Part shown: positions 7,664 through 61,815 of the stretch, piece after piece
Layout of the letters: every line of letters starts with the position of its first letter
Position numbering within the stretch: position 1 is the stretch's first letter
Assembly (NCBI GenBank): GCA_964539075.1
Contig: CAZIFU010000287.1
Span: 15,134 to 79,133, forward strand
Direction: 5' to 3'
DNA from: an uncultured Verrucomicrobiota bacterium
GTDB lineage: Bacteria; Verrucomicrobiota; Verrucomicrobiia; Limisphaerales; CAZIFU01
Length of the DNA stretch: 64,000 nucleotides
Program-made: the position numbers and the translations under genes
The notes under the pieces: model-generated
What the model was told of the DNA's origin: nothing
Database searches by the model: none
The model's input: only the letters and a program-made list of their open reading frames with translations

Positions 7664-7717
7664 AAAGCCATCTTCCTGACGTTCGCGAACCGATGTCAAT
7701 TCAAGAAGTCAGCCCGG

Positions 7718-7807
7718 TTTGGAGTTCACGCTTTAGCGTGTCTGCGCCGTTTGGAGTTCACGCTTTAGCGTGTCTGCGCTGACAGCCTAAAGGCTGGACT
7801 CCAAACT
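7718..7807. repeat. GGAGT-type REP-like hairpin with tandemly duplicated left arm
   Basis: tttggagttcacgctttagcgtgtctgcgc occurs twice, then acagcctaaaggctggactccaaac. Confidence 0.75.
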
Positions 7808-7833: not shown

Positions 7834-9417
7834 TTACATCCCATCCCGCAGAATCTCCCGCGCGGCGTTGTAGCCGCACGCGCCCATCACGCCGCCGCCC
7901 GGATGCGTGGCCGCTCCGCACAGGTAAAGACCGCGGACCGGCGTGCGATAGTTCGCGTAGCCGGGGACCGGCCGCAGGAAAAAGAGCCGGTGCAGGTGCA
8001 TCGCGCCCTGAAAAATGTTGCCGCCGGTCAGGCCATAACGCCGTTCCATGTCGAGCGGCGAAAGCACCTGGCGGGCAATCACCGCGCGGCGGAAGTTCGG
8101 CGCGTACTCGTTGAGGATGTCGAAGCACCGGTCGGCGAATTTTTCCTTCACGTCATCCCAGCTCGCGCCGCGCAGGTCCGTCGGCGCATACTGGACGAAC
8201 AGGGACATGAGATGTTTGCCCGGCGGCGCGACCGTCGGGTCCACCACGGACGGGATCGTGCCTTCCAGGATCGGGGATTCCGAAGGGCGGCCATATTTCG
8301 CGTCGTCGTAAGCGCGCTCGAGGTAGTCGAACGTGGGCGAGATATGGATCGTGCCGCGATGCTGCGGGCCGGCTTCCCTGCCCGGCAACGCCTTGAAGTC
8401 CGGCAGTTCGCCGAGCGCCACGTTGATTTTGAGCGAGGGGCTGGTGTAATCAATTCCGCGCACGGACTCGACGAAGTCGCCCGGCAGTTCGGCCGGGTCC
8501 ATCAGCTTGAGGAATGTGACATGGGCGTCGGCATTCGACACAACGGCGCCAGCGCGCAGCTCGGTTCCGTCTTCGAGCACGACGCCGGCCGCACGGCCGC
8601 GCTCGACGAGAATTGTTTTCACCGGCGCGTTGCAGCGAATCTCCGCGCCGCGCTCGCGCGCCGCCGCGGCCAGCGCGTTGCTGATGCCGCCCATGCCGCC
8701 GCGCACGTACCCCCAGACGCCGCGCGCGCCGTTGCACTCACCCATGACGTGGTGAAAAAGCACGTAGGCCGTGCCTGGCATGGACGGCGAGGCCATCGCG
8801 CCGATGATCGCGTCGGTGGCCAGCGTGACTTTGAGTTGTTCGGACTCGAACCAGCGGTCGAGAATGGGCCGCGCGGCGCCGGTGAGGATTTCGATCGCCT
8901 GCGCGCCGTCGCGGCCGAGTTTGCGGAAGCGCCAGGCCAGCCGGGCGAGTTGCGCCAGGTCGCGCCACCGTCCCGACCACGGGTCGGGCGGCGTCTGCAG
9001 GAGCGTCGGCTCGATGAAATCGGCCACGCGTTCGAGCATTTTTTCGTAACGGGGCAGCGCCGCGGCGTCCTTCGCGGAAAATTTGCTGATCTCGCGCCGG
9101 TTCAAGTCCGCGTCCGGTCCGAGCAACAGGTGACGGCCATCGGGGAACGGCGTGAACGAGGAAGGATTGCGCGGCAGCAGCTCGTAGCCGTGGCGCGGGA
9201 GATCGAGGTCGCGGATGATTTCGGGCCGCAACAGGCTGTTCACGTAGGCGGCGGTGGAGACTTTGAAGCCGGGCCAGATTTCCTCCGTCACGCAGGCGCC
9301 GCCGACCAGTTCGCGCCGTTCCAGCACGAGCACGCGCCGGCCCGCGCGGGCCAGGTAGGCCGCCGTCACCAGTCCGTTGTGCCCCGCGCCGATGATGAGA
9401 ATGTCGTAGTGAGCCAT
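7834..9417 (-). CDS. NAD(P)/FAD-dependent oxidoreductase, phytoene desaturase/PYROXD2-like
   Basis: IIGAGHNGLVTAAYLA, VLERR, C-terminal LYLCGAATHPGGGVMG. Confidence 0.9.
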   Translation of the reverse strand: MAHYDILIIGAGHNGLVTAAYLARAGRRVLVLERRELVGGACVTEEIWPGFKVSTAAYVNSLLRPEIIRDLDLPRHGYELLPRNPSSFTPFPDGRHLLLGPDADLNRREISKFSAKDAAALPRYEKMLERVADFIEPTLLQTPPDPWSGRWRDLAQLARLAWRFRKLGRDGAQAIEILTGAARPILDRWFESEQLKVTLATDAIIGAMASPSMPGTAYVLFHHVMGECNGARGVWGYVRGGMGGISNALAAAARERGAEIRCNAPVKTILVERGRAAGVVLEDGTELRAGAVVSNADAHVTFLKLMDPAELPGDFVESVRGIDYTSPSLKINVALGELPDFKALPGREAGPQHRGTIHISPTFDYLERAYDDAKYGRPSESPILEGTIPSVVDPTVAPPGKHLMSLFVQYAPTDLRGASWDDVKEKFADRCFDILNEYAPNFRRAVIARQVLSPLDMERRYGLTGGNIFQGAMHLHRLFFLRPVPGYANYRTPVRGLYLCGAATHPGGGVMGACGYNAAREILRDGM

Positions 9418-12395: not shown

Positions 12396-15194
12396 GTGGC
12401 TGAGCGCTCGCTTCCCATCTGGCAGCTTCATGCCGGCATCCTCGGCCATCTGAAAACCGGCAATCGCCTCGTGCTCGTCGCACCGACCGGTTCCGGCAAG
12501 ACCACGCAAGTGCCGCAGATGCTTCTCGACGCCGGCTTCGCTGGCGGAAATCCGAAATCCGAAATCCGAAATCCGAAACGGATTGTGGTGCTTCAGCCGC
12601 GACGGGTCGCCGCCCGCACCGTGGCCGCGCGCGTCGCGTGGGAGCGCGGTTGCAAACTGGGCAAGGAGGTCGGCTACCAGATTCGTTTTGACGATCAGAC
12701 CAGTCTCGGCACGCGCATTTGCTATGTGACGGAGGGGATTCTGCTCCGCTGGCTCCAGGACGACCGCGCGTTGCCGGACGTGGGCGTGATTTTGTTTGAT
12801 GAGTTTCATGAACGCAATTTGTTCAGTGACGTCGCGCTTGCGCTGGTGAAGCAGCTTCAGCAAACACAGCGGCCGGACCTGAAAATGGTCGTCATGTCCG
12901 CCACACTCGATGCCGAGCCGGTAGCGGATTATTTGGCGTTCGGGCATCCACCTTCCGGCGGCCCAACGGTAAAACCGCCTGAAGGCGGAACTCCAAACAC
13001 GGCCTGCCCGATTCTTATCTCCGAAGGCATCAGCTTCCCGGTGGAGATCCGTTACCTCGATCACCAGGACGAGCGGCCCATCACCGAGCAGGCGGCCGAT
13101 GGTGTCGAGGCCATCATCAACGCGGGCGAACCGGGGGACATCCTCGTCTTCATGCCGGGGATGGGCGAGATCAACGCCACGATCAACGCCCTGCGCGCCG
13201 CACGACTGATTGAACGCGTGGCGTTCATCCCGTTGCACGGCGATCTCCCGCCGGAGGAACAGGACCTGGCCTTCGCACAGAATCCGTTGCGCAAGGTGGT
13301 GGTCGCCACCAACGTGGCTGAAACGTCCGTCACCATTGACGGCATCCGGCACGTGGTGGACAGCGGTCTGGCGCGCGTGGCCCGCTACGACATCGAGCGC
13401 GGCATCGGCACGTTGTTCCTCGAGGACATCAGCCGCGCCTCGGCGGACCAGCGCAAGGGCCGGGCGGGCCGCACGGCGCCGGGCATGTGCCATCGGCTCT
13501 GGACCGCGAGCGGCCAGTTGAACCGCCCGGAGCGCAACACTCCGGAAATCCAACGCAGCGATCTGGCGGAGGTGGTGTTGCTGCTGCATTCGCTCGGCAT
13601 CAAGCGCGCCGCCGGGTTCGACTGGCTCGACAAGCCGGACCCACTGGCCGTCGAGCGGGCGGAGAAGCTGTTGCGGACGCTTGGAGCCTTACGAGCTTCG
13701 ATGCACACACCCCTCACGCGCTCTTCTGACAGCCCCCTCACCCCATCCCTCTCCCCCTCGGAGGGGGAGACGGTGCCCGCAGAGCGGGTGAGCGGTGAAA
13801 CCACCGACCTCACCCCCATCGGCCGCCAAATGCTCCGTTTGCCGATGCATCCGCGTTACTCGCGAATGCTGGTCGAGGCGTCGCGACGCGGCTGCGCGCC
13901 GGCGGCCGCCTTGTGCGCGGCGCTGGTGAGCGGCCGCGATTTGCTCCAGCGCGTGCGCCGGGAGGACCAGCACATCGCCGAAGCGCGCGAATTGTTCGAG
14001 GCCAGCCAGGACTCTGATTTTTTCACACTGATGCGGGCGTATCAGTTTGCGAAAAATTCCAACTTCAGCGTCGAGCGCTGCCGTCGCCACGGCATCAACG
14101 CGCAGGTGGCGCGGCAGGTGGAGCAGACGTTCGGGCAAATTCTCCAGATCGCGCAGCAACAGAAGCTGGTTCGGGGCCGGGAATCGGGGGACGAGGGCGA
14201 AGAACCTCCAACGTCCAACGTCCAACGTCCAAAGCCGGATGATGACGTCTTGCTGCGGTGCATCGTCGCGGGATTCGTTGACCAGCTTTGCCTGCGGCGC
14301 GATCAAGGGACGCTCGAATGCGATCTGACCGAAGGCCGGCACGGCACATTGATGCGCGAGAGCGTGGTGCAGAGCGCGCCCCTGTTTGTGGCGGCGACGG
14401 TTCGCGAAGTGACCGGGCGCGGCCCCGAGAACCTTACGTTGCTCGGTCTGGCGACGGCGGTGAAGCGCGCGTGGCTGGAAGAGATGTTTCCGGACCAGTT
14501 GAGCGCTCGCGTCGAGCACCTGTTCGACCGCACGCACAAACGTGTCGCCGGCGTGAAACTTGTGCGGTTCCACGACCTGGTCATTCATCACGAGCACCAG
14601 AGCGAAGTCGTGCCGGCGGCGGCGGGGCGCTCCCTGGCGGACGCCTATCACAAGGGCTATTTCGAACTGCCGCTGTTCAACCACGAAATAAAGCAATTCA
14701 TCGCCCGCGTGAACCTGGTCTGCGCGGCAAGGCCGGTACTGGAATTTCCGCGGTTTGACGAAACGGCGATCGCAGCGTGCCTGGCGCGGGCGTTCGCCGG
14801 GTTGACGCTGGTGAAGGAAGCGCAGGCCACGCATCTGAAGGAATCCTTCGCCGCGCACCTGGCCCCGGAGCAAGTCGGCTGGCTGGACGAACTCGCGCCG
14901 GCGGCGGTTCCCTGGCCCGGCGGCCGCAAGGTGAAGCTGCTCTACTCCGAGGACGCGGAGGCGGCGAAGAGCGAGGCGATTTCCCCGGAGGCGCAGGTGA
15001 AGTTGCTCGAGTGTTTCGAGCTCTCGGAGCATCCGCGCGTGTGCGAGGGCGCGATGCCGGTGAAACTCTGGCTGTGCGCGCCGGATGGAAAACGCCTGGA
15101 GTCCACGCTCGACTGGCCGGCCTGGAAGGCGGCGCAGTATCCGAAGCTCAAGCCGGCGTTGCTGAGGAAATATCCCGGCTTTACGTGGCGATAG
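12396..15194 (+). CDS. hrpB: ATP-dependent RNA helicase HrpB with four in-frame repeat inserts
   Basis: APTGSGKTT, DEFHER, MSAT, ATNVAETSVTIDG, QRKGRAGR; inserts near 12547, 12938, 13706, 14180. Confidence 0.92.
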   Translation: MAERSLPIWQLHAGILGHLKTGNRLVLVAPTGSGKTTQVPQMLLDAGFAGGNPKSEIRNPKRIVVLQPRRVAARTVAARVAWERGCKLGKEVGYQIRFDDQTSLGTRICYVTEGILLRWLQDDRALPDVGVILFDEFHERNLFSDVALALVKQLQQTQRPDLKMVVMSATLDAEPVADYLAFGHPPSGGPTVKPPEGGTPNTACPILISEGISFPVEIRYLDHQDERPITEQAADGVEAIINAGEPGDILVFMPGMGEINATINALRAARLIERVAFIPLHGDLPPEEQDLAFAQNPLRKVVVATNVAETSVTIDGIRHVVDSGLARVARYDIERGIGTLFLEDISRASADQRKGRAGRTAPGMCHRLWTASGQLNRPERNTPEIQRSDLAEVVLLLHSLGIKRAAGFDWLDKPDPLAVERAEKLLRTLGALRASMHTPLTRSSDSPLTPSLSPSEGETVPAERVSGETTDLTPIGRQMLRLPMHPRYSRMLVEASRRGCAPAAALCAALVSGRDLLQRVRREDQHIAEARELFEASQDSDFFTLMRAYQFAKNSNFSVERCRRHGINAQVARQVEQTFGQILQIAQQQKLVRGRESGDEGEEPPTSNVQRPKPDDDVLLRCIVAGFVDQLCLRRDQGTLECDLTEGRHGTLMRESVVQSAPLFVAATVREVTGRGPENLTLLGLATAVKRAWLEEMFPDQLSARVEHLFDRTHKRVAGVKLVRFHDLVIHHEHQSEVVPAAAGRSLADAYHKGYFELPLFNHEIKQFIARVNLVCAARPVLEFPRFDETAIAACLARAFAGLTLVKEAQATHLKESFAAHLAPEQVGWLDELAPAAVPWPGGRKVKLLYSEDAEAAKSEAISPEAQVKLLECFELSEHPRVCEGAMPVKLWLCAPDGKRLESTLDWPAWKAAQYPKLKPALLRKYPGFTWR

Positions 15195-15456
15195 GAGTGC
15201 AGGCACCCGTGCCTTCGCCCGGAAAGCTTCGAGTTCTTGTTCTTGCGGTTTCCCAAACTTTGTCGCATATGCGACGAAGTTTTGAAGCGCGTGGAGGCTT
15301 CGCATATTCGAAACTCAAGCGGACGTTGCTGATAAACATCCCGACTTTACGTGGCAGTAGGAACGCTGGCAGCTGTTCTCACGCTTGAACGTTTCAAGTT
15401 TTTGTTCGAGGGGTTATCCCAAACTTTGTCGCATATGCGACAAAGTTTGGGAGCGC
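15134..15456. repeat. 166-bp-period tandem duplication of the hrpB 3' end plus palindrome
   Basis: Stop-equivalent TAG at 15194 and 15360; TCCCAAACTTTGTCGCATATGCGAC at 15251 and 15417; perfect 36-bp palindrome at 15417-15452. Confidence 0.85.
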
Positions 15457-15513
15457 GTGAGGGCGTGAAACCCTTGTATTCGCGGGACGGCGGCCTGCGC
15501 TCCAATGCGGCGG

Positions 15514-26388: not shown

Positions 26389-26595
26389 GTTTGGAGTTCA
26401 GGCTTTAGCCTGCTCTGGCCGTGACAAGCTGAAGAGGCTGTGTGAAAAATACCCCAACGCCGCATCCTCCTCGTTCTCGTCCTCGTCCTCGTCCTCGAAA
26501 ACCCTTGAAAAATCGAGGACGAGGACGAGAACGACGACGAGGATAAACCGTCACGAAGGGTTTTTCACACAGCCTCTGAAGCTTGAACTCCGAAC
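26389..26595. repeat. GGAGT-type REP hairpin interrupted by a MITE
   Basis: gtttggagttcaggctttagcc ... caagctgaa[MITE]tgaagcttgaactccgaac. Confidence 0.75.
26434..26576. mobile_element. 143-bp MITE-like element
   Basis: Perfect 16-bp terminal inverted repeats GAGGCTGTGTGAAAAA; 4-bp target duplication TGAA; internal (GTCCTC)n/(GAGGAC)n hairpin. Confidence 0.85.
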
Positions 26596-29450: not shown

Positions 29451-29531
29451 TCGGAGGGATGAGCTACGCGAGTCCCGAACCTGTGTCGGTTGTCCGGGAT
29501 AATTCGAGGGACTCGCCTGGCTCGTCCCGCC
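29451..29531. repeat. GGAGGGACGAGCT-family hairpin
   Basis: Arms gagctacgcgagtccc / gggactcgcctggctc; family also at 47130-47208 and 50035-50101. Confidence 0.7.
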
Positions 29532-29570
29532 GGGCAAGCCTTGGGGCAGGCGGCCGCTGTAAAAAATCAC

Positions 29571-34546: not shown

Positions 34547-35692
34547 TCAGTCGAGAGTTCGCAATCCGTCCACGACCGTCGCGCGCGCCACCGCCAGCGA
34601 CGGCGGGAGCGCGGCAACGATTCCCAAACCGGCCGCGACGGTGAACGCCATTCCCAAAATGCGCGGCGTCACCTCGAAGCAGACAAAGATGCCGTTGGTG
34701 AGTTTCTGGATGTCAATCGTGCCAAAGAACAGCCACGCGCCGCCCGCGCCGAGCACCGCGCCGAGCATCGCCAGGCCAAAACTCTCGGCGAGGATGAACG
34801 CGAAAAGTTCGCGCCGGCGGTAGCCCAGCGCCTTGAGCACGGCCAGTTCGCGGAAGCGTTCGCGGATGGCCATGCTCATCGTGCTGACCGTGACGAGCAG
34901 CAGGGTGAAGACGACCACGGTGCAGATCGAGCCGATGAGGATTTTGATGTTGCCCCACATCGAGACGAAGCCCATCTGGAACGCCCGCTCGGTCTCGGCG
35001 CGTACTTCGGCGGAGGTGTTGGCGAAGGCTTTGTTGATCGCGTCGATCACCGCCGGCGCGACCCCGGCGGACCCGGCGCGCAGCCACCAGGTGCCCACGA
35101 TGCCGCTGTTGTTGAGCGATTCGTCGAGCAGTTTGTGGTGGAGGAAGACGTTGCGGTCGTCGAGCGTGCCGGCATAAACCGCCGCGATCTCGAGGTCCAC
35201 GTCCATCGGATAGATCGTGCTGGAGAGTTTCATCTTGTCGCCGATCTTGAGTTTGTATTTCGCCATCGTGTCCTTGCCCACGAGGCACGAGAGCCGGTTT
35301 TTCTTCCACGCCTCGATCTGCTCCGGATCGGTGTGCGCCTCGACGAACACGTTGGTGAACCGCACCGGGTCCACGGCGAACTGCGCGAAGGTGGTGAACT
35401 CCTCGTCCTTGTATTTGCCGCCGAACCAGGTGAAGGGCGTCACCGCGGCGATGCCCGGAATCCGGTCGAGCGTGGCCAACTGCCGCGCCGGCAGCACGGC
35501 GGCGAGCGACACCTTGTTGCGCACCACGATCCGCAGCGACGAGCCGATGTCCTCGGGCGGCACCGTGAATTCGTGCAGCGTGACCAGCAACATCACGAAC
35601 AGGAACAGGCTGACGGCCACGCTCAGGACCGTGAGCGCGGCGCGGCGCTTGTTGCGCAACGCGTTCCTGGCGATGAAGCCGGCGAGGGTCAT
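34547..35692 (-). CDS. ABC transporter permease (MacB/FtsX-like)
   Basis: [28 protein letters not shown]. Confidence 0.9.
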
Positions 35693-36414
35693 GGAAGTGC
35701 GGAGTGAGGAGTGCGGAGTGCGGAGTGAAGCGGCTCATCGGTCAGCTCGCCCTTTTCCAGATGAACGCTGCGCGAACCGTACGCGGCGGCCTTGGGATCG
35801 TGCGTGACCATGATGACGGTCTTGCCGGCCTGGCGACTCAAGGATTGCAGAATCGTGAGCACCTCCTGCGCGGAGGCGGAGTCGAGATTGCCCGTCGGTT
35901 CGTCAGCGACGACGAGGCTCGGGTCGGTCACCAGTGCGCGGGCGATGGCGGCGCGCTGTTCCTGGCCGCCGGACAATTGGCGCGGCAAATGGCGCGCGCG
36001 ATCGGCAAGGCCGACGAGTTCGAGCGCGGTGTTTACCAGCTTGCGGCGTGCACGCCCGCCCAGCCTGGTGAGCAACAGCGGCAGTTCGACATTTTCGTAG
36101 GCCGTCAACACGGGGATCAAATTGAAGGTCTGGAAAACGAAGCCCACGTTCTGGTTGCGCCAGTCCGCCAGATGGGATTCGTTGAGCGTGGTCAGGTCGA
36201 TGCCTTGCACGCGACACTCGCCGCGGGTGGGCCGGTCAATGCCCGCGATGATGTGGAGCAGCGTGGACTTGCCGGAGCCGGACGGCCCCATGAGCACGAG
36301 GAACTCTCCGGTTTGAATCTCCAGGGAAACGTCCTTGAGCGCGGTGACGTTGATTTCCCCTTGCAGGAAAATCTTCGTGAGCTGGCGCGTGACGACAACG
36401 GGAGTGGCGGCCAT
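35689..36414 (-). CDS. ABC transporter ATP-binding protein (LolD/MacB-like)
   Basis: [28 protein letters not shown]; C-terminal tail encoded by a heptamer repeat. Confidence 0.92.
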
Positions 36415-36591
36415 AAATGTCCCGTCACTCATACGGCAACGGCGCGCCCATTGCAACCCGTGGGGCACGCGGCCGCCTCGTCCGCGGGCTGTCCGAGGCG
36501 TTGGATTTTGTCCCCGCTTCGCCAGAAGAACCGAGCCTCGGGACCGCGGCGGCAAAAAAACACTCGCGGGCGAGGCCGCCCGCGCTCCTCG

Positions 36592-38984: not shown

Positions 38985-39630
38985 CCCTCACTCCGGCCCC
39001 ACTGCCATTGAATTGAGCCCAAGACACGCTAAAGCGTGGACACCGAACGCGTGGAAACCCGTTTGGTGTGCACGCTTTAGCGTGTCCCGTTTCCAAGGAC
39101 CGTTCGCTAATTCAATGGCGGTGCACCCCGGCCCTCCCGAAGGGAGAGAATCCAAGGACGCGCGATCGCGCATAGTGCCCATGACCCGGCTGAGGGACTC
39201 GCCGGCGCGCCAGCGTCTTGGAGTGCGGCAGTCCTCTGCCGCTGTCGCAAGCCGCGGGAGTCCGAAAGCGCCAGAGGACTGGCGCAGTCCAAGACCTTGC
39301 GGAGTGAGGACGGTTCATGGGTAGCCTCCACTTCCAACTTTGGACGCGCATCGGGGCCATGAACTGGTTAGCGCTTCCGTTGTCGCGCCAGCGTCTTGGA
39401 GTGCGCCAGTCCTCTGGCGCTTTCGACCACCCACGACTTTCAAAGCGCCAGAGGACTGGCGCAGTCCAAAACCTTGCGGAGTGAGGACGGTTCATGGGTA
39501 GCCTCCACGATCCGAACATCGCGTACTGGAACCATCAACCCTGGAGCGCGGCATTTATGCCGCTTCACGAATCGTGCAGTATGGGACGTCGAAGCGGCAT
39601 AAATGCCACGCTCCAAAGGCGGTTCACGGG
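38985..39630. repeat. Modular nested repeat cluster
   Basis: CCCTCAC element split by a 14-bp-IR element (39001-39122) carrying a REP pair; three consecutive CCATGAAC...GGTTCA(T/C)GGG shells carrying hairpins. Confidence 0.8.
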
Positions 39631-42152: not shown

Positions 42153-42304
42153 GTAGCCGCCGACGTCAGTCGGCGCACTGCCTTCCCGTCCGAGAACATT
42201 TGGCGCGGACTGACGTCCGCGGCTACCCGGCACCGTAGCCGCCGACGTGAGTCGGCGCTCATCGTTCCTGGCATAAGAGTGCGCCGACTGACGTCGGCGG
42301 CTAC
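42153..42304. repeat. Four GTAG REPs in two inverted pairs
   Basis: GTAGCCGC(C/G)GACGT(C/G)AGTC(G/C)GCGC at 42153, 42203, 42235, 42281. Confidence 0.9.
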
Positions 42305-42428
42305 GGTTCATGTTACCGCGGCGGCGAAATCCATCGTTCCTGGCCCGACTTCAGGCTTGCCAAAACCCGCGCGCTTTGCTTCCATGCAACCAAGCAAACT
42401 CCAACCCACCTTCAACCGGAGAAATACC

Positions 42429-43344: not shown

Positions 43345-43501
43345 GTAGCCGCCGACGTCAGTCGGCGCACTTCCTTCCCGCCGGAGAAACCTTGGCGCGG
43401 ACTGACGTCCGCGGCTACCGCGCGCCGTAGCCGCCGACGTTAGTCGGCGCAGTCTTTCCCCCTCACCCGAAAAATCAGCGCGGACTCACGTCCGCGGCTA
43501 C
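43345..43501. repeat. Four GTAG REPs in two inverted pairs
   Basis: Copies at 43345, 43395, 43427, 43478. Confidence 0.9.
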
Positions 43502-43506
43502 GAGGG

Positions 43507-44146: not shown

Positions 44147-44202
44147 GCGCGGACTTACGTCCGCGGCTACGCCGCGTCGTAGCCGCCGACGTGAGTCGGC
44201 GC
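44147..44202. repeat. Two GTAG REPs upstream of the RAYT
   Basis: Copies at 44147-44170 and 44179-44202. Confidence 0.88.
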
Positions 44203-47077: not shown

Positions 47078-47129
47078 GACCGGAGTTAAACGCAATGGCG
47101 CAGCGAGGCCAAGCCGCAAAACCCATTTT

Positions 47130-47208
47130 TCGGAAGGACGAGCTACGCGAGTCCCTAACTTCCCGGCCGGCCCTTTCAAATGGGGACTCGCGTAGCTCGT
47201 CCCTCCGA
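47130..47208. repeat. GGAGGGACGAGCT-family hairpin
   Basis: Near-perfect 26-bp arms in a divergent intergenic region. Confidence 0.8.
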
Positions 47209-47285
47209 AGCCGACGCCTCGTGATCGCCCAGCCATCCAAACTTCGCTTTGTTTCAATCCCGTTCCCTGATAGATTGGGCGCTCA

Positions 47286-50030
47286 ATGGCCGAATCGCCT
47301 TCTATTTCAACCGCGGCTCTCGAAGCGGAAACCATTCCGCACTCCGCACTCCGCACTCCGCATTTCCCCGAACTGCTCGCCCCGGCCGGCGATTGGGAGT
47401 GCGCCCGCGCGGCCGTCGAGAACGGCGCCGACGCAATCTACTTCGGCCTGGAAAAGTTCAACGCCCGGATGCGCGCGCGCAATTTCACCGGGACGGACCT
47501 GCCCAGGTTGATGGAGTTTCTCCACCGCCGAGGTGTGAAGGGCTACGTCACTTTCAATACGCTCGTCTTCGCCAATGAGCTGGCCGAGGCGACGCAATAC
47601 CTGCGCGCCATCATCGCCGCCGGCGTGGACGCCGCCATCGTGCAGGACGTGGGCATCTGCCGGCTGATCCGGCGCCTCTCACCCGATTTCCCGATTCACG
47701 CGAGCACGCAGATGACGATCACCAGCGCCGCCGGCGTGGAGTTCGCGCGCGAACTGGGCTGCCACCTGGTCGTGCTGGCGCGGGAGAATTCGTTGAAGGA
47801 AATCGAGAAGATTCAAGAGGCACAGCGCGCTTCGTTCGGAGTCCAGCCTTCAGGCTGTTCCTCCGCGCCCGGACAGCCTGAAGGCTGGACTCCGAACTTG
47901 CCGCTCGAGGTGTTCGTCCACGGCGCGCTCTGCGTGGCCTACTCGGGCCAATGTCTCACCAGCGAGGCGCTGGGCGGCCGCAGCGCCAATCGCGGCGAAT
48001 GCGCGCAGGCCTGCCGGATGCCCTACGAGTTGATCTCCGACGGCAACCGGATTCCCCTCGGCGACAAAAAATATCTCCTCAGCCCGCAAGACCTCGCCGG
48101 GCTGGAAGTATTGTCCGAACTGGTCCGTCTCGGCGTCGCTTCACTCAAGATCGAAGGCCGCCTCAAGTCGCCCGAATACGTGGCCGGCATCACGCGCGTT
48201 TACCGCCAGGCGCTGGATGATTTACGATTTACGATTTACGATTTACGAGAATCGCGAAGTTCGGAAGCTGTGGCCGAAACCAGCCCGGCGCGTAAATCGC
48301 AAATCGTAAATCGTCAATACGAGATGGAGATGTCCTTCTCGCGCGGCCTCTCCACCGGCTGGTTCCGTGGCAACGACCACCAGGCGCTCGTCCACGCCCG
48401 ATTCGGCAAGAAACGCGGCGTGTCTCTCGGCGAAGTCACCCGCGTGCTGCACGACGCCGTGGTCGTCCGCCTCGCCGGCCCGCTCAAGCCCGGCGACGGC
48501 ATCGTGTTCGACGCCGGCCATCCCGAAGAGAAAGAGGCGGGCGGGCGGGTCTTCAAGGTTCAAAGTGCAAAGCGCAACGTTCAAGGTTCGCCCCAGGCCA
48601 CCGTGACCTTCGGCCGTGGCGCAGTGGATTTCACCCGCGTCCACGTCGGCGACAAGGTTTGGAAGACGAGCGACCCGGAACTTGACCGCCGCCTGCGCCG
48701 GACGTTTGCAGGCGACGTGCCGAGGTTTCAACGGCCGATTCACCTCGAAGTCCACGGCCACGCTGGCGCGCCACTCACGCTCATCGCCGGTGACGAGCCT
48801 GGCCACATCGTGCAGATCGCCTCGACGGTGCCGCTCGCACCGGCCGAAAAGCAGCCGCTGACGACCGAGCGCCTGACCGGGCAACTGGGCCGTCTTGGCG
48901 GCACGCCCTTCACGCTCGGGGATTTGCACAACCACCTCGAAGGCGACGTCATCCTGCCGGTCCGCGAACTCAACGCGCTCCGCCGCGCAGCCGTGGCGCA
49001 ATTGGAGGCGCTCCGCGCTCAGCCGAAGCGGTGGACGCTGAACGAATGTGGAATGCGGAATGCGGAATGCGGAATAGAGCACAACGGGTCTCACGAATCC
49101 AAAATTCCGCGCCCCGCCCTCCGCGCTCCGCAGTTGATCGTCTTGGTCCGCTCGCTCGCCCAACTGGAGTCCGCGTTGCGCTGCGGCGTCGAAACGGTCT
49201 ATTGCGAATTCGCGGACCCGAAGAAATACCGCGAGGCCGTCACGCTCTTCCACACCGCGCGCGGCTGCGCTGTTTCCCAAGACCCCAAATCCCAGACCCC
49301 ATCCCCTTCAATCTGGGTGGCTCCTCCGCGCATCACCAAGCCGGGCGAGGAATGGATTCTCCAGCAAGTCCGCTCCTGCAACGCCGACGGCTACCTCGTC
49401 CGCAACTATGATCACCTGAAGTTTTTTGCGGGCTGCCGGCGCATCGGCGACTTCTCGCTCAACGTCGCGAACCCGCTCACGGCGGAATACTTCAAGGAGA
49501 AGTTCGGCCTGGAGCGCGTCACGGCCTCCTATGACCTGAACATCACGCAGCTCGAAGCGCTGCTGCGCGCCGCGCCGCCGGAATGGTTTGAGGTGACGAT
49601 TCACCAGCACATGCCGATGTTTCACATGGAGCACTGCGTCTTCTGCGCGTTCCTCTCCACCGGCAAGGACTACCGCGATTGCGGCCGCCCCTGCGACAAG
49701 CACGACGTGAAGCTCCGCGACCGTGTGGGCATGGAACACCCGCTCAAGGCCGACGTGGGCTGTCGCAACACCGTCTTCAACGCGCGCGCCCAGACGGGCG
49801 CCGAGTTCATCGAACCTCTCCTGGCGATCGGGGCGCGTCATTTTCGCATCGAATTCGTCAACGAATCGCCCGTCGAAGTGGCGCGCACGATCACGCAGTA
49901 TCGCGCGTTGTTGCGCGGCGAAATCACCGGCGCGCGACTTTGGCAGGAGTTGAAGTTGATCAACCAGCTCGGCGTCACCCGCGGCCAGTTGGATCAGACC
50001 GAAGTGCGCAAGGTGGTGCCGAAAGCGTAG
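47286..50030 (+). CDS. Peptidase U32-family Fe-S protein with DUF3656-like region (RlhA-like RNA hydroxylase), six in-frame repeat inserts
   Basis: ELLAPAG, FNARMRA, HASTQ, HGALCVAYSGQC, NRGECAQACR, SLKIEGR. Confidence 0.88.
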   Translation: MAESPSISTAALEAETIPHSALRTPHFPELLAPAGDWECARAAVENGADAIYFGLEKFNARMRARNFTGTDLPRLMEFLHRRGVKGYVTFNTLVFANELAEATQYLRAIIAAGVDAAIVQDVGICRLIRRLSPDFPIHASTQMTITSAAGVEFARELGCHLVVLARENSLKEIEKIQEAQRASFGVQPSGCSSAPGQPEGWTPNLPLEVFVHGALCVAYSGQCLTSEALGGRSANRGECAQACRMPYELISDGNRIPLGDKKYLLSPQDLAGLEVLSELVRLGVASLKIEGRLKSPEYVAGITRVYRQALDDLRFTIYDLRESRSSEAVAETSPARKSQIVNRQYEMEMSFSRGLSTGWFRGNDHQALVHARFGKKRGVSLGEVTRVLHDAVVVRLAGPLKPGDGIVFDAGHPEEKEAGGRVFKVQSAKRNVQGSPQATVTFGRGAVDFTRVHVGDKVWKTSDPELDRRLRRTFAGDVPRFQRPIHLEVHGHAGAPLTLIAGDEPGHIVQIASTVPLAPAEKQPLTTERLTGQLGRLGGTPFTLGDLHNHLEGDVILPVRELNALRRAAVAQLEALRAQPKRWTLNECGMRNAECGIEHNGSHESKIPRPALRAPQLIVLVRSLAQLESALRCGVETVYCEFADPKKYREAVTLFHTARGCAVSQDPKSQTPSPSIWVAPPRITKPGEEWILQQVRSCNADGYLVRNYDHLKFFAGCRRIGDFSLNVANPLTAEYFKEKFGLERVTASYDLNITQLEALLRAAPPEWFEVTIHQHMPMFHMEHCVFCAFLSTGKDYRDCGRPCDKHDVKLRDRVGMEHPLKADVGCRNTVFNARAQTGAEFIEPLLAIGARHFRIEFVNESPVEVARTITQYRALLRGEITGARLWQELKLINQLGVTRGQLDQTEVRKVVPKA

Positions 50031-57312: not shown

Positions 57313-57397
57313 AAACCTTGAACCCTGAACCTCGAACCTTGAAGATCGGCGCCGAACCGGGTGGCGTTCAAAGTTCGAGGTTCAAGGTTCAAGGTTT
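57313..57397. repeat. Heptamer-tandem hairpin between convergent genes
   Basis: (GAACCTT/C)n arm and (TTCAAGG)n inverted arm. Confidence 0.75.
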
Positions 57398-59598: not shown

Positions 59599-61815
59599 TC
59601 AACGCACGGCGCGTTTGCGTTTGCCGCCGCGCGGGTAGCGGACTTTGACAGGGGCGGCGGGCGACTGCATTCCCAGTGCACCGCGTTTGAGTTCGTTGAT
59701 CTGATCGCGGAGCAGCGCGGCTTTTTCGAACTCCAGGTTGTTGGCGGCTTCGAGCATTTCGGCTTCGAGTTCGCGGAGGGTCTCGGTCACGTCGAAGTTG
59801 CCGCCGGCTTCGTTGATCACGGCCGCGGCGCGGGCGGAGCCTTCGCGATACACCGCCAGGCTGTCCTCGACGGCGCGGCTGACGCTGCGCGGGGTGATGT
59901 GGTGCTCGCGGTTGTAGGCGAGCTGCTTCTCGCGGCGGTAGTTGGAAATGGCCAGAAACTTTTGAATGCTCTGCGTCATCACGTCGGCGTAAAGGATCAC
60001 TTCACCGTTCAGATGGCGTGCGGCGCGGCCGGCGGTCTGAATCAAACTCGTCTCGCTCCGGAGAAAACCTTCCTTGTCAGCGTCGAGAATGGCGACGAGC
60101 GACACCTCCGGCAGATCGAGGCCTTCGCGCAGCAGGTTGATGCCGACGAGCACGTCGAACTCGCCCTTGCGGAGCCCGCGCAGAATCTCGACACGCTCGA
60201 TGGCGTCAATCTCGCTGTGCAGGTAACGGACGTTGATGCCGATGTCGCGGAGGTAATCGGTCAGTTCCTCGGCGGTGCGCTTGGTCAGCGTGGTGACGAG
60301 CACGCGCTCTTTTTGCTCGACCCGTTTGCGCGCCTCGTTGATGAGGTCATCAATCTGGCCCTTGAGCGGTTTGACGGTGATGACCGGGTCCACCAGGCCG
60401 GTGGGGCGGACGACCTGTTCGACGACGCCGGAATTTCCACTGCCCAGGCCCTCGCTTTGCGGGACCACCCTCTCCCCACCCGATGGGGAGAGGGACGGGG
60501 TGAGGGGTGCTCTTGTTTCTTCCGTAGCAGCCGACGTGAGGAGGCTCTGATCAATGTCCTTTGAAGAATGAGCCTCCTCACGTCGGCTGCTACGAACTTG
60601 AAGGGCACTCTCCCCTGCCCATTGAATTTCCCGACCGCCTGGCGTGGCGCTGACATAAATGGTCTGGTTCTGGTGGCCTTGAAACTCGCCGAAGTTCAGG
60701 GGGCGATTGTCGAGCGCGCTGGGGAGCCGGAAACCGTGCTCGACGAGGACGGTCTTGCGCGAGCGGTCGCCTTCGTACATCCCGCCGATCTGCGGGACGG
60801 TGGCGTGCGACTCGTCAATCACAAGCAGGAAATCCGGCGGGAAAAATTCCATCAAGGTGCAGGGCCGCGAACCGGCCGGCCGGCCGGTGATGTGGCGCGA
60901 ATAATTTTCAATGCCGGAACAAAAGCCCATCTCCTCCATCATCTCCAGGTCGTACTCGGTGCGCATCTTGACGCGCTGGGCTTCAAGCAGTTTGCCGTGC
61001 TTTTCGAACCACGCGATGCGGTCGCCCAGTTCCTCGCGGATGGTCAGGACGGCGCGCTTTGTTTTTTCAGCGGGCGTGACGAATTGTTTGCCGGGGAAAA
61101 CGGTGACCACTTCCAGGCCCTCGATTTTGTCACCGGTGAGCGGCTCGAAGCGGGTCAGGCGCTCCACCCGGTCGCCGAAAAACTCGATGCGCAACGCGTC
61201 TTCCACGTAGGCGGGGCACAGTTCGACGGTGTCGCCGCGCACGCGGAACTGGCCGCGGGTGAACTCGATGTCGTTGCGGTTGTATTGCAGGTCCACCAAA
61301 CGGAGGAGGAACTGGTCGCGGGTCAGTTCCTGGCCGGCGCGCAAGTGGACGAGCATCGTCTCGTAATCCTCCCGGCTGCCGATGCCATAGATGCACGAGA
61401 CGCTGGCGACCACGATCACGTCGCGTCGCGCGAAGAGCGAACTCATCGTCGAGAGCCGCATCCGCTCGATCTCCTCGTTCACGCTGGAATCCTTCTCGAT
61501 GAAGGTGTCGGTGCGCGGGATGTAGGCTTCGGGCTGGTAATAATCGAAATAACTCACGAAATACTCGACGGCGTTGCGCGGAAAAAAACTTTTGAATTCG
61601 GCGTAAAGCTGCGCCGCGAGCGTCTTGTTGTGCGAGATGACGAGCGTGGGCTTGTTTACGTTTTGGATGGCATTGGCGATGGTGAAGGTCTTGCCGGAGC
61701 CGGTGACGCCGAGCAGCACCTGATGCTTCGCGCCGGACAACAGCCCCTCGGTCAGCTTCGCAATCGCTTGCGGCTGGTCACCGGCGGGCGCGTATGGGGC
61801 GACGAGTTCGAACAT
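59599..61815 (-). CDS. uvrB: Excinuclease ABC subunit B with ~60-aa repeat-derived insert
   Basis: [50 protein letters not shown]-terminal UVR domain. Confidence 0.97.
60459..60593. repeat. In-frame GTAG REP hairpin plus CCCTCACCCC element inside uvrB
   Basis: Perfect 23-bp arms at 60524-60546 and 60571-60593; second element at about 60461-60507. Confidence 0.9.

Follow-up and report, generated by a model that had tools for sequence, protein, structure and literature searches.

A conserved U32-family gene of an uncultured Verrucomicrobiota bacterium carries dispersed heptamer arrays and a palindrome in its variable loops

How can a conserved gene accommodate six segments of repeat DNA within its reading frame, when most of them are built of units of seven nucleotides, a length that is not a multiple of three? 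This question is raised by a gene for a U32-family protein (positions 47286-50030) in a 64,000-nucleotide stretch of DNA from an uncultured Verrucomicrobiota bacterium of soil or sediment (contig CAZIFU010000287.1, positions 15,134 to 79,133 of the forward strand; the whole stretch is called the window here, and its coordinates are used throughout). The gene is intact and conserved, its repeats belong to dispersed families, they lie in variable loops, and its orthologues carry differing repeats in these places. We think it likely that this is a working U32 gene, whose N-terminal tail and five of whose loops or linkers have been colonised by the dispersed repeats of the genome.

Period-7 arrays were called with Tandem Repeats Finder (TRF), hairpins were located by an inverted-repeat scan, and RNA folding energies were calculated with z-scores. 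The original prediction had placed six in-frame repeat inserts in this open reading frame (ORF), and TRF and the inverted-repeat scan found all six segments where it had put them (Table 1). The wording “six repeat inserts” needs qualifying in two respects: four segments (sites 1, 2, 3 and 5) are clear, but those beginning at 48552 and 49276 (sites 4 and 6) are degenerate arrays, recognisable as such mainly because orthologues carry perfect arrays at both sites; and each segment is a repeat added to a loop that is present, in shorter form, in all orthologues, rather than a clean insertion. The site 1 array ends directly before the first invariant residue of the protein, P28. The arms of the site 2 palindrome (47834-47897) read GTTCGGAGTCC... 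and bear neither a GTAG nor a CGTC tag, and related copies are found at 7783-7802 and 12975-12994 of the window. At site 3 the arms form an inverted pair of 28 nucleotides (nt) with 93% complementarity (48220-48247 and 48291-48318), around a loop that exceeds the 5-codon loop of the orthologues by 8 codons and has an unrelated sequence, while the inverted pair at site 5 (49050-49068 and 49104-49122) comprises 19 nt and is only 74% complementary, the peptide of its right arm being PHSALRTPH in orthologues. At site 4, 24 of 31 positions match at lag 7, and the same unit family also forms an intergenic hairpin at 57313-57397 where both arms are present.

The protein consists, from N- to C-terminus, of a U32 TIM-barrel-like module, DUF3656 and a C-terminal Cys-rich U32-like module. 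In a Pfam search it matched Peptidase_U32 (PF01136) over two stretches with 284 bits (gathering cut-off 22.4; E 8e-85) and DUF3656 (PF12392; 93 bits, E 2e-26). A protein search gave thousands of relatives, and the best 120 were used (68-77% identical, 854-962 amino acids (aa) long, annotated as U32 peptidase or DUF3656 protein, and from Verrucomicrobiota or Pedosphaera). Around 300 alignment columns are invariant among these 120 orthologues, among them those of the cysteines C216, C223, C239 and C243 (CX6CX15CX3C) of the N-terminal module and of a second Cys cluster near residues 784-826. We take the four-Cys motif to be that of the Fe-S-binding U32 proteins UbiU/UbiV, TrhP and RlhA, with cluster binding predicted here, and the U32 plus DUF3656 architecture is presumably that of E. 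coli RlhA/YdcP. With the U32 Fe-S hydroxylases (RlhA, TrhP, UbiU/UbiV) the protein shares the Pfam U32 domain and the invariant motif, but it has the additional C-terminal Cys-rich module, and its scores lie far below the cut-offs of the NCBIfam equivalog models (TrhP 216.8 vs 534, UbiU 153.9 vs 440 and UbiV 41.3 vs 275 bits), while no RlhA model matched it among the NCBIfam models. Orthology to RlhA, named earlier in a proposed check, was thus not shown, and from its domains the protein can be called U32-family and DUF3656-type, but not an RlhA orthologue.

Eighty orthologous loci (designated by L-numbers below) were collected by a tblastn scan with one genome per species, and these come from subdivision 3 (Limisphaerales/Pedosphaera-type), Opitutaceae and Nostocales cyanobacteria, the last at 63-65% identity. 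In all 80 a single open frame runs from the main tblastn match to the stop codon or the contig end. A translated, functional gene had been proposed on the strength of a single base, the C at 48300; the intactness of the gene stands, through the invariant columns and the 80 open frames, but is not shown by that base. The U32 gene is thus intact and conserved, and very probably it is translated. The ATG at 47286 is the sole canonical start upstream of the invariant PELLAPAGDW and lies four codons past an in-frame TAG, and no start codon is found between the site 1 array and P28, so the first array must be translated if the gene is. Peptides such as FTIYDLR and NAECGIEHNGSHESK are predicted as the insert-spanning products of tryptic digestion.

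Contigs from two runs labelled as metagenomic RNA-Seq are identical to parts of the gene: 47933-48126, 48558-49018 and 48995-49301 in run X3 and 48562-48935 in run X5. Jointly they span 48558-49301, and with it sites 4, 5 and 6, without a gap, and although DNA carry-over is possible in such runs this argues for transcription with the inserts retained.

With regard to their place in the protein, the six segments coincide with six length-variable regions in the alignment of the 80 orthologues (lengths in Table 1), and site 2 is only 8-11 aa long in most of them. Mapping onto a predicted structure, a check named beforehand, used an AlphaFold2 (AF2) model built from 120 sequences, with a predicted local distance difference test (pLDDT) score of 76 and a predicted template modelling (pTM) score of 0.81 (a run with 24 sequences reached pLDDT 59 and was left unused). 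In this model, which is a prediction only, the sites fall in the N-terminal tail, coils, a beta-turn and a linker. Site 1 is in the disordered N-terminal tail (residues 1-23, pLDDT <50), and site 2 is the coil 184-206 between helix 170-183 and strand 207-210 (189-200 at pLDDT <50). The left arm of site 3 is modelled as prolonging helix 296-325 and is followed by a loop, 326-340, of pLDDT <50; site 4 is the turn 428-436 joining strands 418-427 and 437-442; site 5 occupies residues 579-615, the long stretch that links DUF3656 to the C-terminal module (589-611 at pLDDT <50); and site 6 is the coil 659-674, leading from helix to strand at pLDDT ~60. Mapping onto a solved U32 structure was ruled out, as a PDB sequence search (phmmer) with the protein gave nothing at E 0.001 or better and Foldseek against PDB gave generic TIM barrels only.

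The orthologues carry other repeats in the same places. Between 5 and 23 distinct peptide units with a 7-residue period occur per site among the 120 orthologues (NPQSAIRNPQ, ECGMRNAECG, DCGLRIADCG, PSTLNPQPS, SEIGNRKS, NSKFKIQNS and HSALRTPHS are examples), together with palindrome-derived peptides such as FGVPPSGGS..PPEGGTPN and GRAGSPLPA..DGAHGVTRPT, and by arithmetic from these counts lag-7 peptide runs are ~13 times denser in the six sites than elsewhere in the protein. Site 1 holds NPQSAIRNPQ, IGNRQSA and similar peptides, site 4 holds perfect arrays such as (GTTCAAA)n in L018, and site 6 holds (TCAACCC)n, encoding PSTLNPQPS, as well as other units. P0002, at 77% identity the closest relative, lacks an array at site 1, and its palindrome at site 3 is a different one. 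At site 3, 7 of 12 cyanobacterial orthologues carry a cyanobacterial repeat (..PNPLTPFPAREGG..), and one cyanobacterial orthologue has a heptamer array at site 6. The cyanobacterial loci of the Nostocales (L051 and L064-L080) are the nearest non-verrucomicrobial relatives, with an amino acid identity (63-65%) that is high for two phyla, and both lineages are rich in heptamer repeats.

Period-7 repeats exceed chance in the window. Ten strict arrays were found at lag 7, compared to 0-3 at the other lags of 4-12, and 12 relaxed lag-7 windows, compared to 0-3 at other lags and 0 in shuffles; in 68 verrucomicrobial loci there are 67 strict arrays at lag 7 and no more than 7 at any other lag, and 12 cyanobacterial loci hold 35 strict lag-7 arrays. 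In the two freshwater-sediment metagenomes that hold the contig, the U32 gene is covered at a read depth of 12-15x and three good arrays at 400-1550x (970-1550x for the left arm of site 3 and 420-950x for the left arm of site 5), and the Logan unitigs of the source runs break within the perfect arrays, at 47337-47361 and 48220-48246; the arrays are therefore dispersed repeats of the community. A total of 120 metagenome contigs carry (GATTTAC)3 or longer. MITE-like (miniature inverted-repeat transposable element) transposition of the whole hairpin was considered for site 3, but high copy number is confined to the arms and the loop is single-copy, which makes such transposition unlikely. In run X3 the bin holding the GATTTAC array (48170-48266) has a depth of ~3370, compared to 3-5 for the gene, and one contig at this bin is 5.2 kb long with a depth of its own of 31.9; transcription of GATTTAC arrays therefore seems to be plentiful in some part of the community.

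Codons set a limit to what such an array can be. For a perfect 7-nt array of three or more units to be coding, all seven of its cyclic codons must be sense codons. This holds for GATTTAC, but its complement, GTAAATC, contains TAA, so that a perfect GATTTAC hairpin is impossible inside a gene. Neither GGAATGC nor its complement holds a stop, while the complement of TTCAAGG contains TGA, and site 4 has the open orientation alone. In the right arm of site 3 the frame reads CGT AAA TCG CAA ATC GTA AAT CGT CAA TAC, and base 48300, at codon position 1, is C; a T would make TAA of the observed CAA (48300-48302). A stop-removing substitution had been read from this, and it holds in so far as CAA is found where the perfect repeat gives TAA, but the direction T>C is not established. 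The codon is GAA in most orthologues, CAA in the window and L011, and TCA in L006, and the stop-free state is therefore old; the C of the window may derive from G and need not come from T.

The same base had also been taken as a pointer to selection for an open frame, and for this the non-coding copies are informative. Downstream of (GATTTAC)3-or-longer arrays in metagenome contigs, 31 GTAAATC-type right arms were treated as non-coding (in a test for an open frame across the arm, 30 had none and one lay too near the contig end). TAA is intact in 62 of their 107 units and missing in 42%, the variant triplets being TCA (18), AAA (10), CAA (9, or 8%) and GAA (1), and three consecutive perfect units occur in only 2 of the 31 arms; a four-unit arm with one in-frame TAA position would be open by chance in ~4 cases out of 10. 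The presence of the T>C variant in non-coding copies had been named beforehand as the check to make, and with CAA in 9 of 107 units the single C at 48300 is a weak pointer when taken alone: the frame-keeping logic is sound in principle, but the CAA variant pre-exists in the repeat family. The better form of the argument for a stop filter, and the comparison that carries weight, lies within six orthologous arms: TAA has been retained by none of the 6 in-frame units (0/6), as against 14 of 18 units that are out of frame (Fisher p = 0.0016; orthologues only, and the arms share ancestry and are not phylogenetically independent). In metagenome contigs at large, only 9 of 111 (GATTTAC)3-or-longer arrays sit in an open frame. 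The orientation of stop-bearing units in coding sequences (19 in the open sense vs 2) was rejected as evidence, being circular because genes were called from open frames.

From these observations we infer the following course of events. Two kinds of repeat, both of which fill the intergenic space of the genome, would be at work: tandem arrays of 7-nt units, often in inverted pairs that form hairpins, and palindromes resembling repetitive extragenic palindromic (REP) sequences. As 7 is not a multiple of 3, an array within a gene is read in all three frames and yields a peptide whose period is 7 residues (DLRFTIY, ECGMRNA and HSALRTP are examples), and only those copies can persist which add a multiple of 3 bases and are stop-free in the frame used. 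Both arms of a GATTTAC/GTAAATC hairpin could be kept only if the unit with the in-frame TAA is a variant one, which here is CAA. The encoded peptides would then be tolerated passengers, and purifying selection would filter variant units that exist beforehand, with no dedicated repair substitution needed. Local polymerase slippage, or recombination with other copies, are candidate routes by which the repeats may have arrived.

Two groups of observations weigh against such simple tolerance. One concerns the arms at sites 3 and 5. The site 3 element is old, its length and a loop of 5 codons being common to L001, L003, L005, L011 and L029. Its arms are nevertheless 84-92% identical among the window, L001, L005 and L011, with a G+C content at third codon positions (GC3) of 0.24-0.33 in genes of GC3 0.68-0.80, whereas saturation has been reached in the loop (0.57) and at the 4-fold sites of the gene (0.56). 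Old neutral passengers should drift and these arms have been kept, so they have not undergone neutral decay. What neutral decay of an insert looks like is shown by L029, where 9102-9188 holds a relic of the site 3 hairpin (DDLRSANTDSRATETAARPAESAHRQ) which has the same length as the intact elements but is fully drifted (57% identity, GC3 0.81 like the gene), and in L003 the element has drifted half-way. The left arm of site 5 is conserved likewise, with 26-30 of 30-33 nt identical in L001, L003 and L010. In the window itself the perfect left arm and the longer, unrelated loop of site 3 look like a renewal of the element. Homogenisation with the pool of arrays, slippage in three-unit steps, or selection on the DNA or RNA could explain the conservation of the arms.

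The other group concerns density. In 38 subdivision-3 loci, 103 kb of the U32 gene hold 44 strict arrays and 509 kb of flanking DNA hold 24. The excess is 9.1-fold (binomial p 2e-18), but orthologous arrays are not independent and common descent inflates the count; by hand count the 44 comprise ~30 different combinations of site and unit. Inserts that are merely tolerated should not exceed the density of non-coding DNA, which this excess does. Gene calls were made by GC3 and are rough, with some genes missed in lower-GC loci, so that the division into coding and intergenic outside the gene is approximate. Furthermore, although the loops are the same in the cyanobacterial orthologues and heptamer arrays are frequent near them, the gene itself holds just 1 of 32 arrays, which weakens the proposal that permissive loops and a supply of repeats are the full cause of the hot spot. 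A more speculative account, which is possible but rather doubtful, is that heptamer arrays in coding loops of subdivision-3 Verrucomicrobia are maintained and exchanged by a sequence-specific process, for instance gene conversion from the genome-wide pool or targeted insertion, with resident arrays as “landing pads”. If so, fixed sites would turn over between unit families while staying near the family consensus, and translated loops would be part of the life cycle of a repeat family, by a mechanism new in bacteria.

Conservation of the arms at silent positions while the loop drifts, seen also for the left arm of site 5, is equally what would be expected if the repeats were kept for a function, either as cis-acting hairpins (sites 2, 3 and 5), with conceivable roles in translation pausing between domains, in mRNA stabilisation or as a recombination signal, or as peptides that came to serve as helix extensions or linkers. 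The stability of the hairpins is very high (-56 kcal/mol, z -11.5, at site 2; -41.7, z -6.4, at site 3; -38.8, z -3.3, at site 5), the modelled helix at site 3 takes in the left arm, and the density of arrays is higher in the gene than in its flanks. We nonetheless consider such a function unlikely, as orthologues have differing units or unrelated palindromes at one and the same site and many have none, as with the short site 2, and as the site 3 element was left to drift in L029 and L003. The arms show no compensatory changes (in L001 the units that face each other have both changed, and their pairing is lost), sites 1, 4 and 6, with their single arrays, gave no RNA structure on folding, and the window contains no match to an Rfam family.

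A unit length that is no multiple of 3, together with two arrays that are perfect over ~4 units, would suit contingency (phase-variation) switches, in which the frame is shifted, and the gene switched off or on in the population, whenever a single 7-nt unit is added or lost, and heptamer repeats are thought to be prone to slippage (PMC4679880). Such switching is highly improbable here: the arrays are short (at most 4.6 units), all 80 orthologues have one open frame, and six independent switches in a conserved, housekeeping-type gene would leave it mostly off. No indel was seen in the contigs of two DNA metagenomes, a weak argument as contigs drop rare variants. As for a decaying pseudogene, or a contig mis-joined at repeats so that the in-frame inserts are artefacts, the breaks of the Logan unitigs inside two perfect arrays would fit it, but single unitigs cover 47627-48246 and 48220-49633 without differences and span sites 2, 4, 5 and 6, and over both breaks the frame and the order of conserved blocks continue as in 120 independently assembled orthologues; with the ~300 invariant residues in addition, we give this reading practically no credence. 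A functioning U32 gene colonised by the repeats of its genome thus remains the reading we prefer.

Table 1. Repeat segments of the U32-family gene and related features of the window
Feature	Position	Strand	Description	Length in window (aa)	Length in 80 orthologues (aa; min/median/max)
U32-family gene	47286-50030	+	Based on ORF list, Pfam matches, invariant columns and AF2 model	914	
Site 1	47336-47362	+	(TCCGCAC)3.9, 100% matches; encodes part of disordered N-terminal tail	27	10/24/364
Site 2 palindrome	47834-47858 / 47873-47897	+	25-nt arms, 100% complementary, 14-nt loop; translated FGVQPSGCSSAPGQPEGWTPN	29	8/11/35
Site 3 left arm	48219-48248	+	(GATTTAC)4.3, 100% matches; encodes DLRFTIYDLR	31 (whole site)	14/24/55 (whole site)
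Site 3 hairpin loop	48249-48290	+	Encodes ESRSSEAVAETSPA; single-copy, read depth near baseline		
Site 3 right arm	48291-48318	+	CGTAAAT CGCAAAT CGTAAAT CGTCAAT (x4.0, 85%); encodes RKSQIVNRQ		
Site 4	48552-48589	+	Degenerate TTCAAGG/TTCAAAG array, x5.4, 77%, TRF score 34; one orientation	18	12/14/39
Site 5 left arm	49044-49075	+	(GAATGCG)4.6, 96%; encodes ECGMRNAECGI	31 (whole site)	19/25/54 (whole site)
Site 5 right arm	49104-49131	+	Decayed TCCGCNC-type array (TRF 49106-49131, x3.7, 78%); encodes IPRPALRAPQ		
Site 6	49276-49301	+	Degenerate CCCMAGA-type array, x3.7, 73%, TRF score 31; 14/19 lag-7 matches	14	2/12/36
Intergenic palindrome upstream of gene	47129-47209		27-nt arms, 96%; same family as 29452-29532		
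Intergenic palindrome right after stop codon	50035-50100		25-nt arms, 88%; family of 47129-47209		
HrpB-like DEAH helicase gene	12396-15194	+	Three in-frame repeats: two heptamer arrays, one palindrome		
Helicase array 1	12547-12578		(GAAATCC)4.6 encoding GNPKSEIRNPK, inside DEAD domain		
Helicase palindrome	12975-12994		Site 2 family; encodes PPSGGPTVKPPEGGTPN		
Helicase array 2	14203-14232		(AACGTCC)4.3 encoding PPTSNVQRPK		
ABC transporter ATPase gene	35689-36555	-	C-terminal tail encoded by (CCGCACT)n array 35696-35727		

Other genes of the window also contain in-frame repeats. The UvrB gene (59599-61815, minus strand) has a perfect GTAG-tagged palindrome with 25-nt arms in frame at 60523-60594 (aa 407-430), beginning CGTAGCAGCC; a helicase gene holds three repeats (Table 1), and the array in the ABC transporter ATPase gene shares its unit family with site 1 of the U32 gene. 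Most strong hairpins of the window are intergenic. Clusters of REP-like palindromes, with dimers and arrays and many of them GTAG-tagged (GTAGCCGCCGACG...), lie between genes at 39023-39615, 42153-42307, 43345-43502 and 44147-44202, and a palindrome of the site 2 family (7749-7806), just past a gene ending at 7699, is abutted by a perfect 32-nt direct duplication (7717-7779). Repeats of other periods are a hairpin at 26468-26543 between two minus-strand genes, with period-6 arms ((TCCTCG)5 facing (CGAGGA)5, 90% complementary), and a 166-bp unit present twice in tandem at 15133-15459 (79% matches, TRF score 414), which takes in the 3' end of the helicase gene and the spacer.

The locus gives a measure of the amount of repeat DNA that a conserved enzyme can take up. 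In a U32 subfamily that is widespread but has no solved structure, it marks six permissive positions, useful for tagging or domain dissection. It is also a concrete case of the genetic code filtering a repeat with a unit length not divisible by three, where hairpins of units with a stop in the complement survive in genes as imperfect copies only. The biology of bacterial heptamer repeats could become testable through the nucleotide-level conservation of the arms and the 9-fold enrichment in one gene, should both be confirmed in complete genomes. On a practical level, such repeats break assemblies and add low-complexity segments to the predicted proteins of Verrucomicrobia metagenome-assembled genomes.

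The closest parallel to in-frame palindromes of this sort is with the Rickettsia palindromic elements (RPE) of Ogata et al., which are reportedly 105-146 bp long and belong to few defined families. The likeness is that of dispersed palindromic repeats which are found between genes and in frame within conserved genes, free of stops, giving extra peptides that are absent from orthologues, in segments thought to sit in loops; correspondingly, the repeats of the window have dispersed copies outside genes, lie in frame in a conserved gene where orthologues differ, and are placed in predicted loops or linkers. They differ from RPE in being mostly short 7-nt-unit arrays or hairpins with stems built of such units, and in that one gene holds six of them, with other repeats at the same sites in orthologues. 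Closer in taxonomy are the intragenic GTAG REPs, which reach their highest number in the verrucomicrobium Opitutus terrae and are common in uvr genes (Di Nocera et al. 2013, PMC3733652); intragenic GTAG and CGTC REPs are often dimers encoding 20-30 aa, and a neutral location in linkers or loops was proposed for them (PMC3733652). The UvrB gene of the window has exactly such a GTAG-tagged in-frame hairpin, whereas the U32 palindrome is untagged and the heptamer arrays are not REPs at all, and U32 genes were not found in the supplementary text searched for that paper.

In many bacteria no other long simple repeats are as abundant as those of heptamers, which are mostly intergenic and rarely translated (PMC4692102, PMC4679880), as with the GGGAATC repeats of Xanthomonas and Nostoc (PMC4692102) and the TAACTGA repeats of Beggiatoaceae (PMC4679880); in the literature searched there was no paper on heptamer repeats in Verrucomicrobia. 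With these heptanucleotide repeats, including the cyanobacterial short tandemly repeated repetitive (STRR) sequences, the arrays studied here share 2-6 or more tandem 7-nt units, the over-representation of period 7, several unit families per genome, occasional inverted pairs and occasional translated repeats of 7 residues. Those known repeats are reported to be mainly intergenic and under-represented in coding DNA, whereas the subdivision-3 U32 gene is 9-fold enriched over its flanks and in the 38 loci contains 44 of all 68 strict arrays, which are thus not mainly intergenic there. The kind of event is therefore one already known from the intragenic palindromes of Rickettsia and Verrucomicrobia, of which the U32 gene of the window is an unusually dense case, and what is new is the combination of translated heptamer arrays and heptamer-stem hairpins at six occupied sites in one gene with unit turnover at fixed sites across an order, enrichment over the flanks and conservation of the arms at the nucleotide level.

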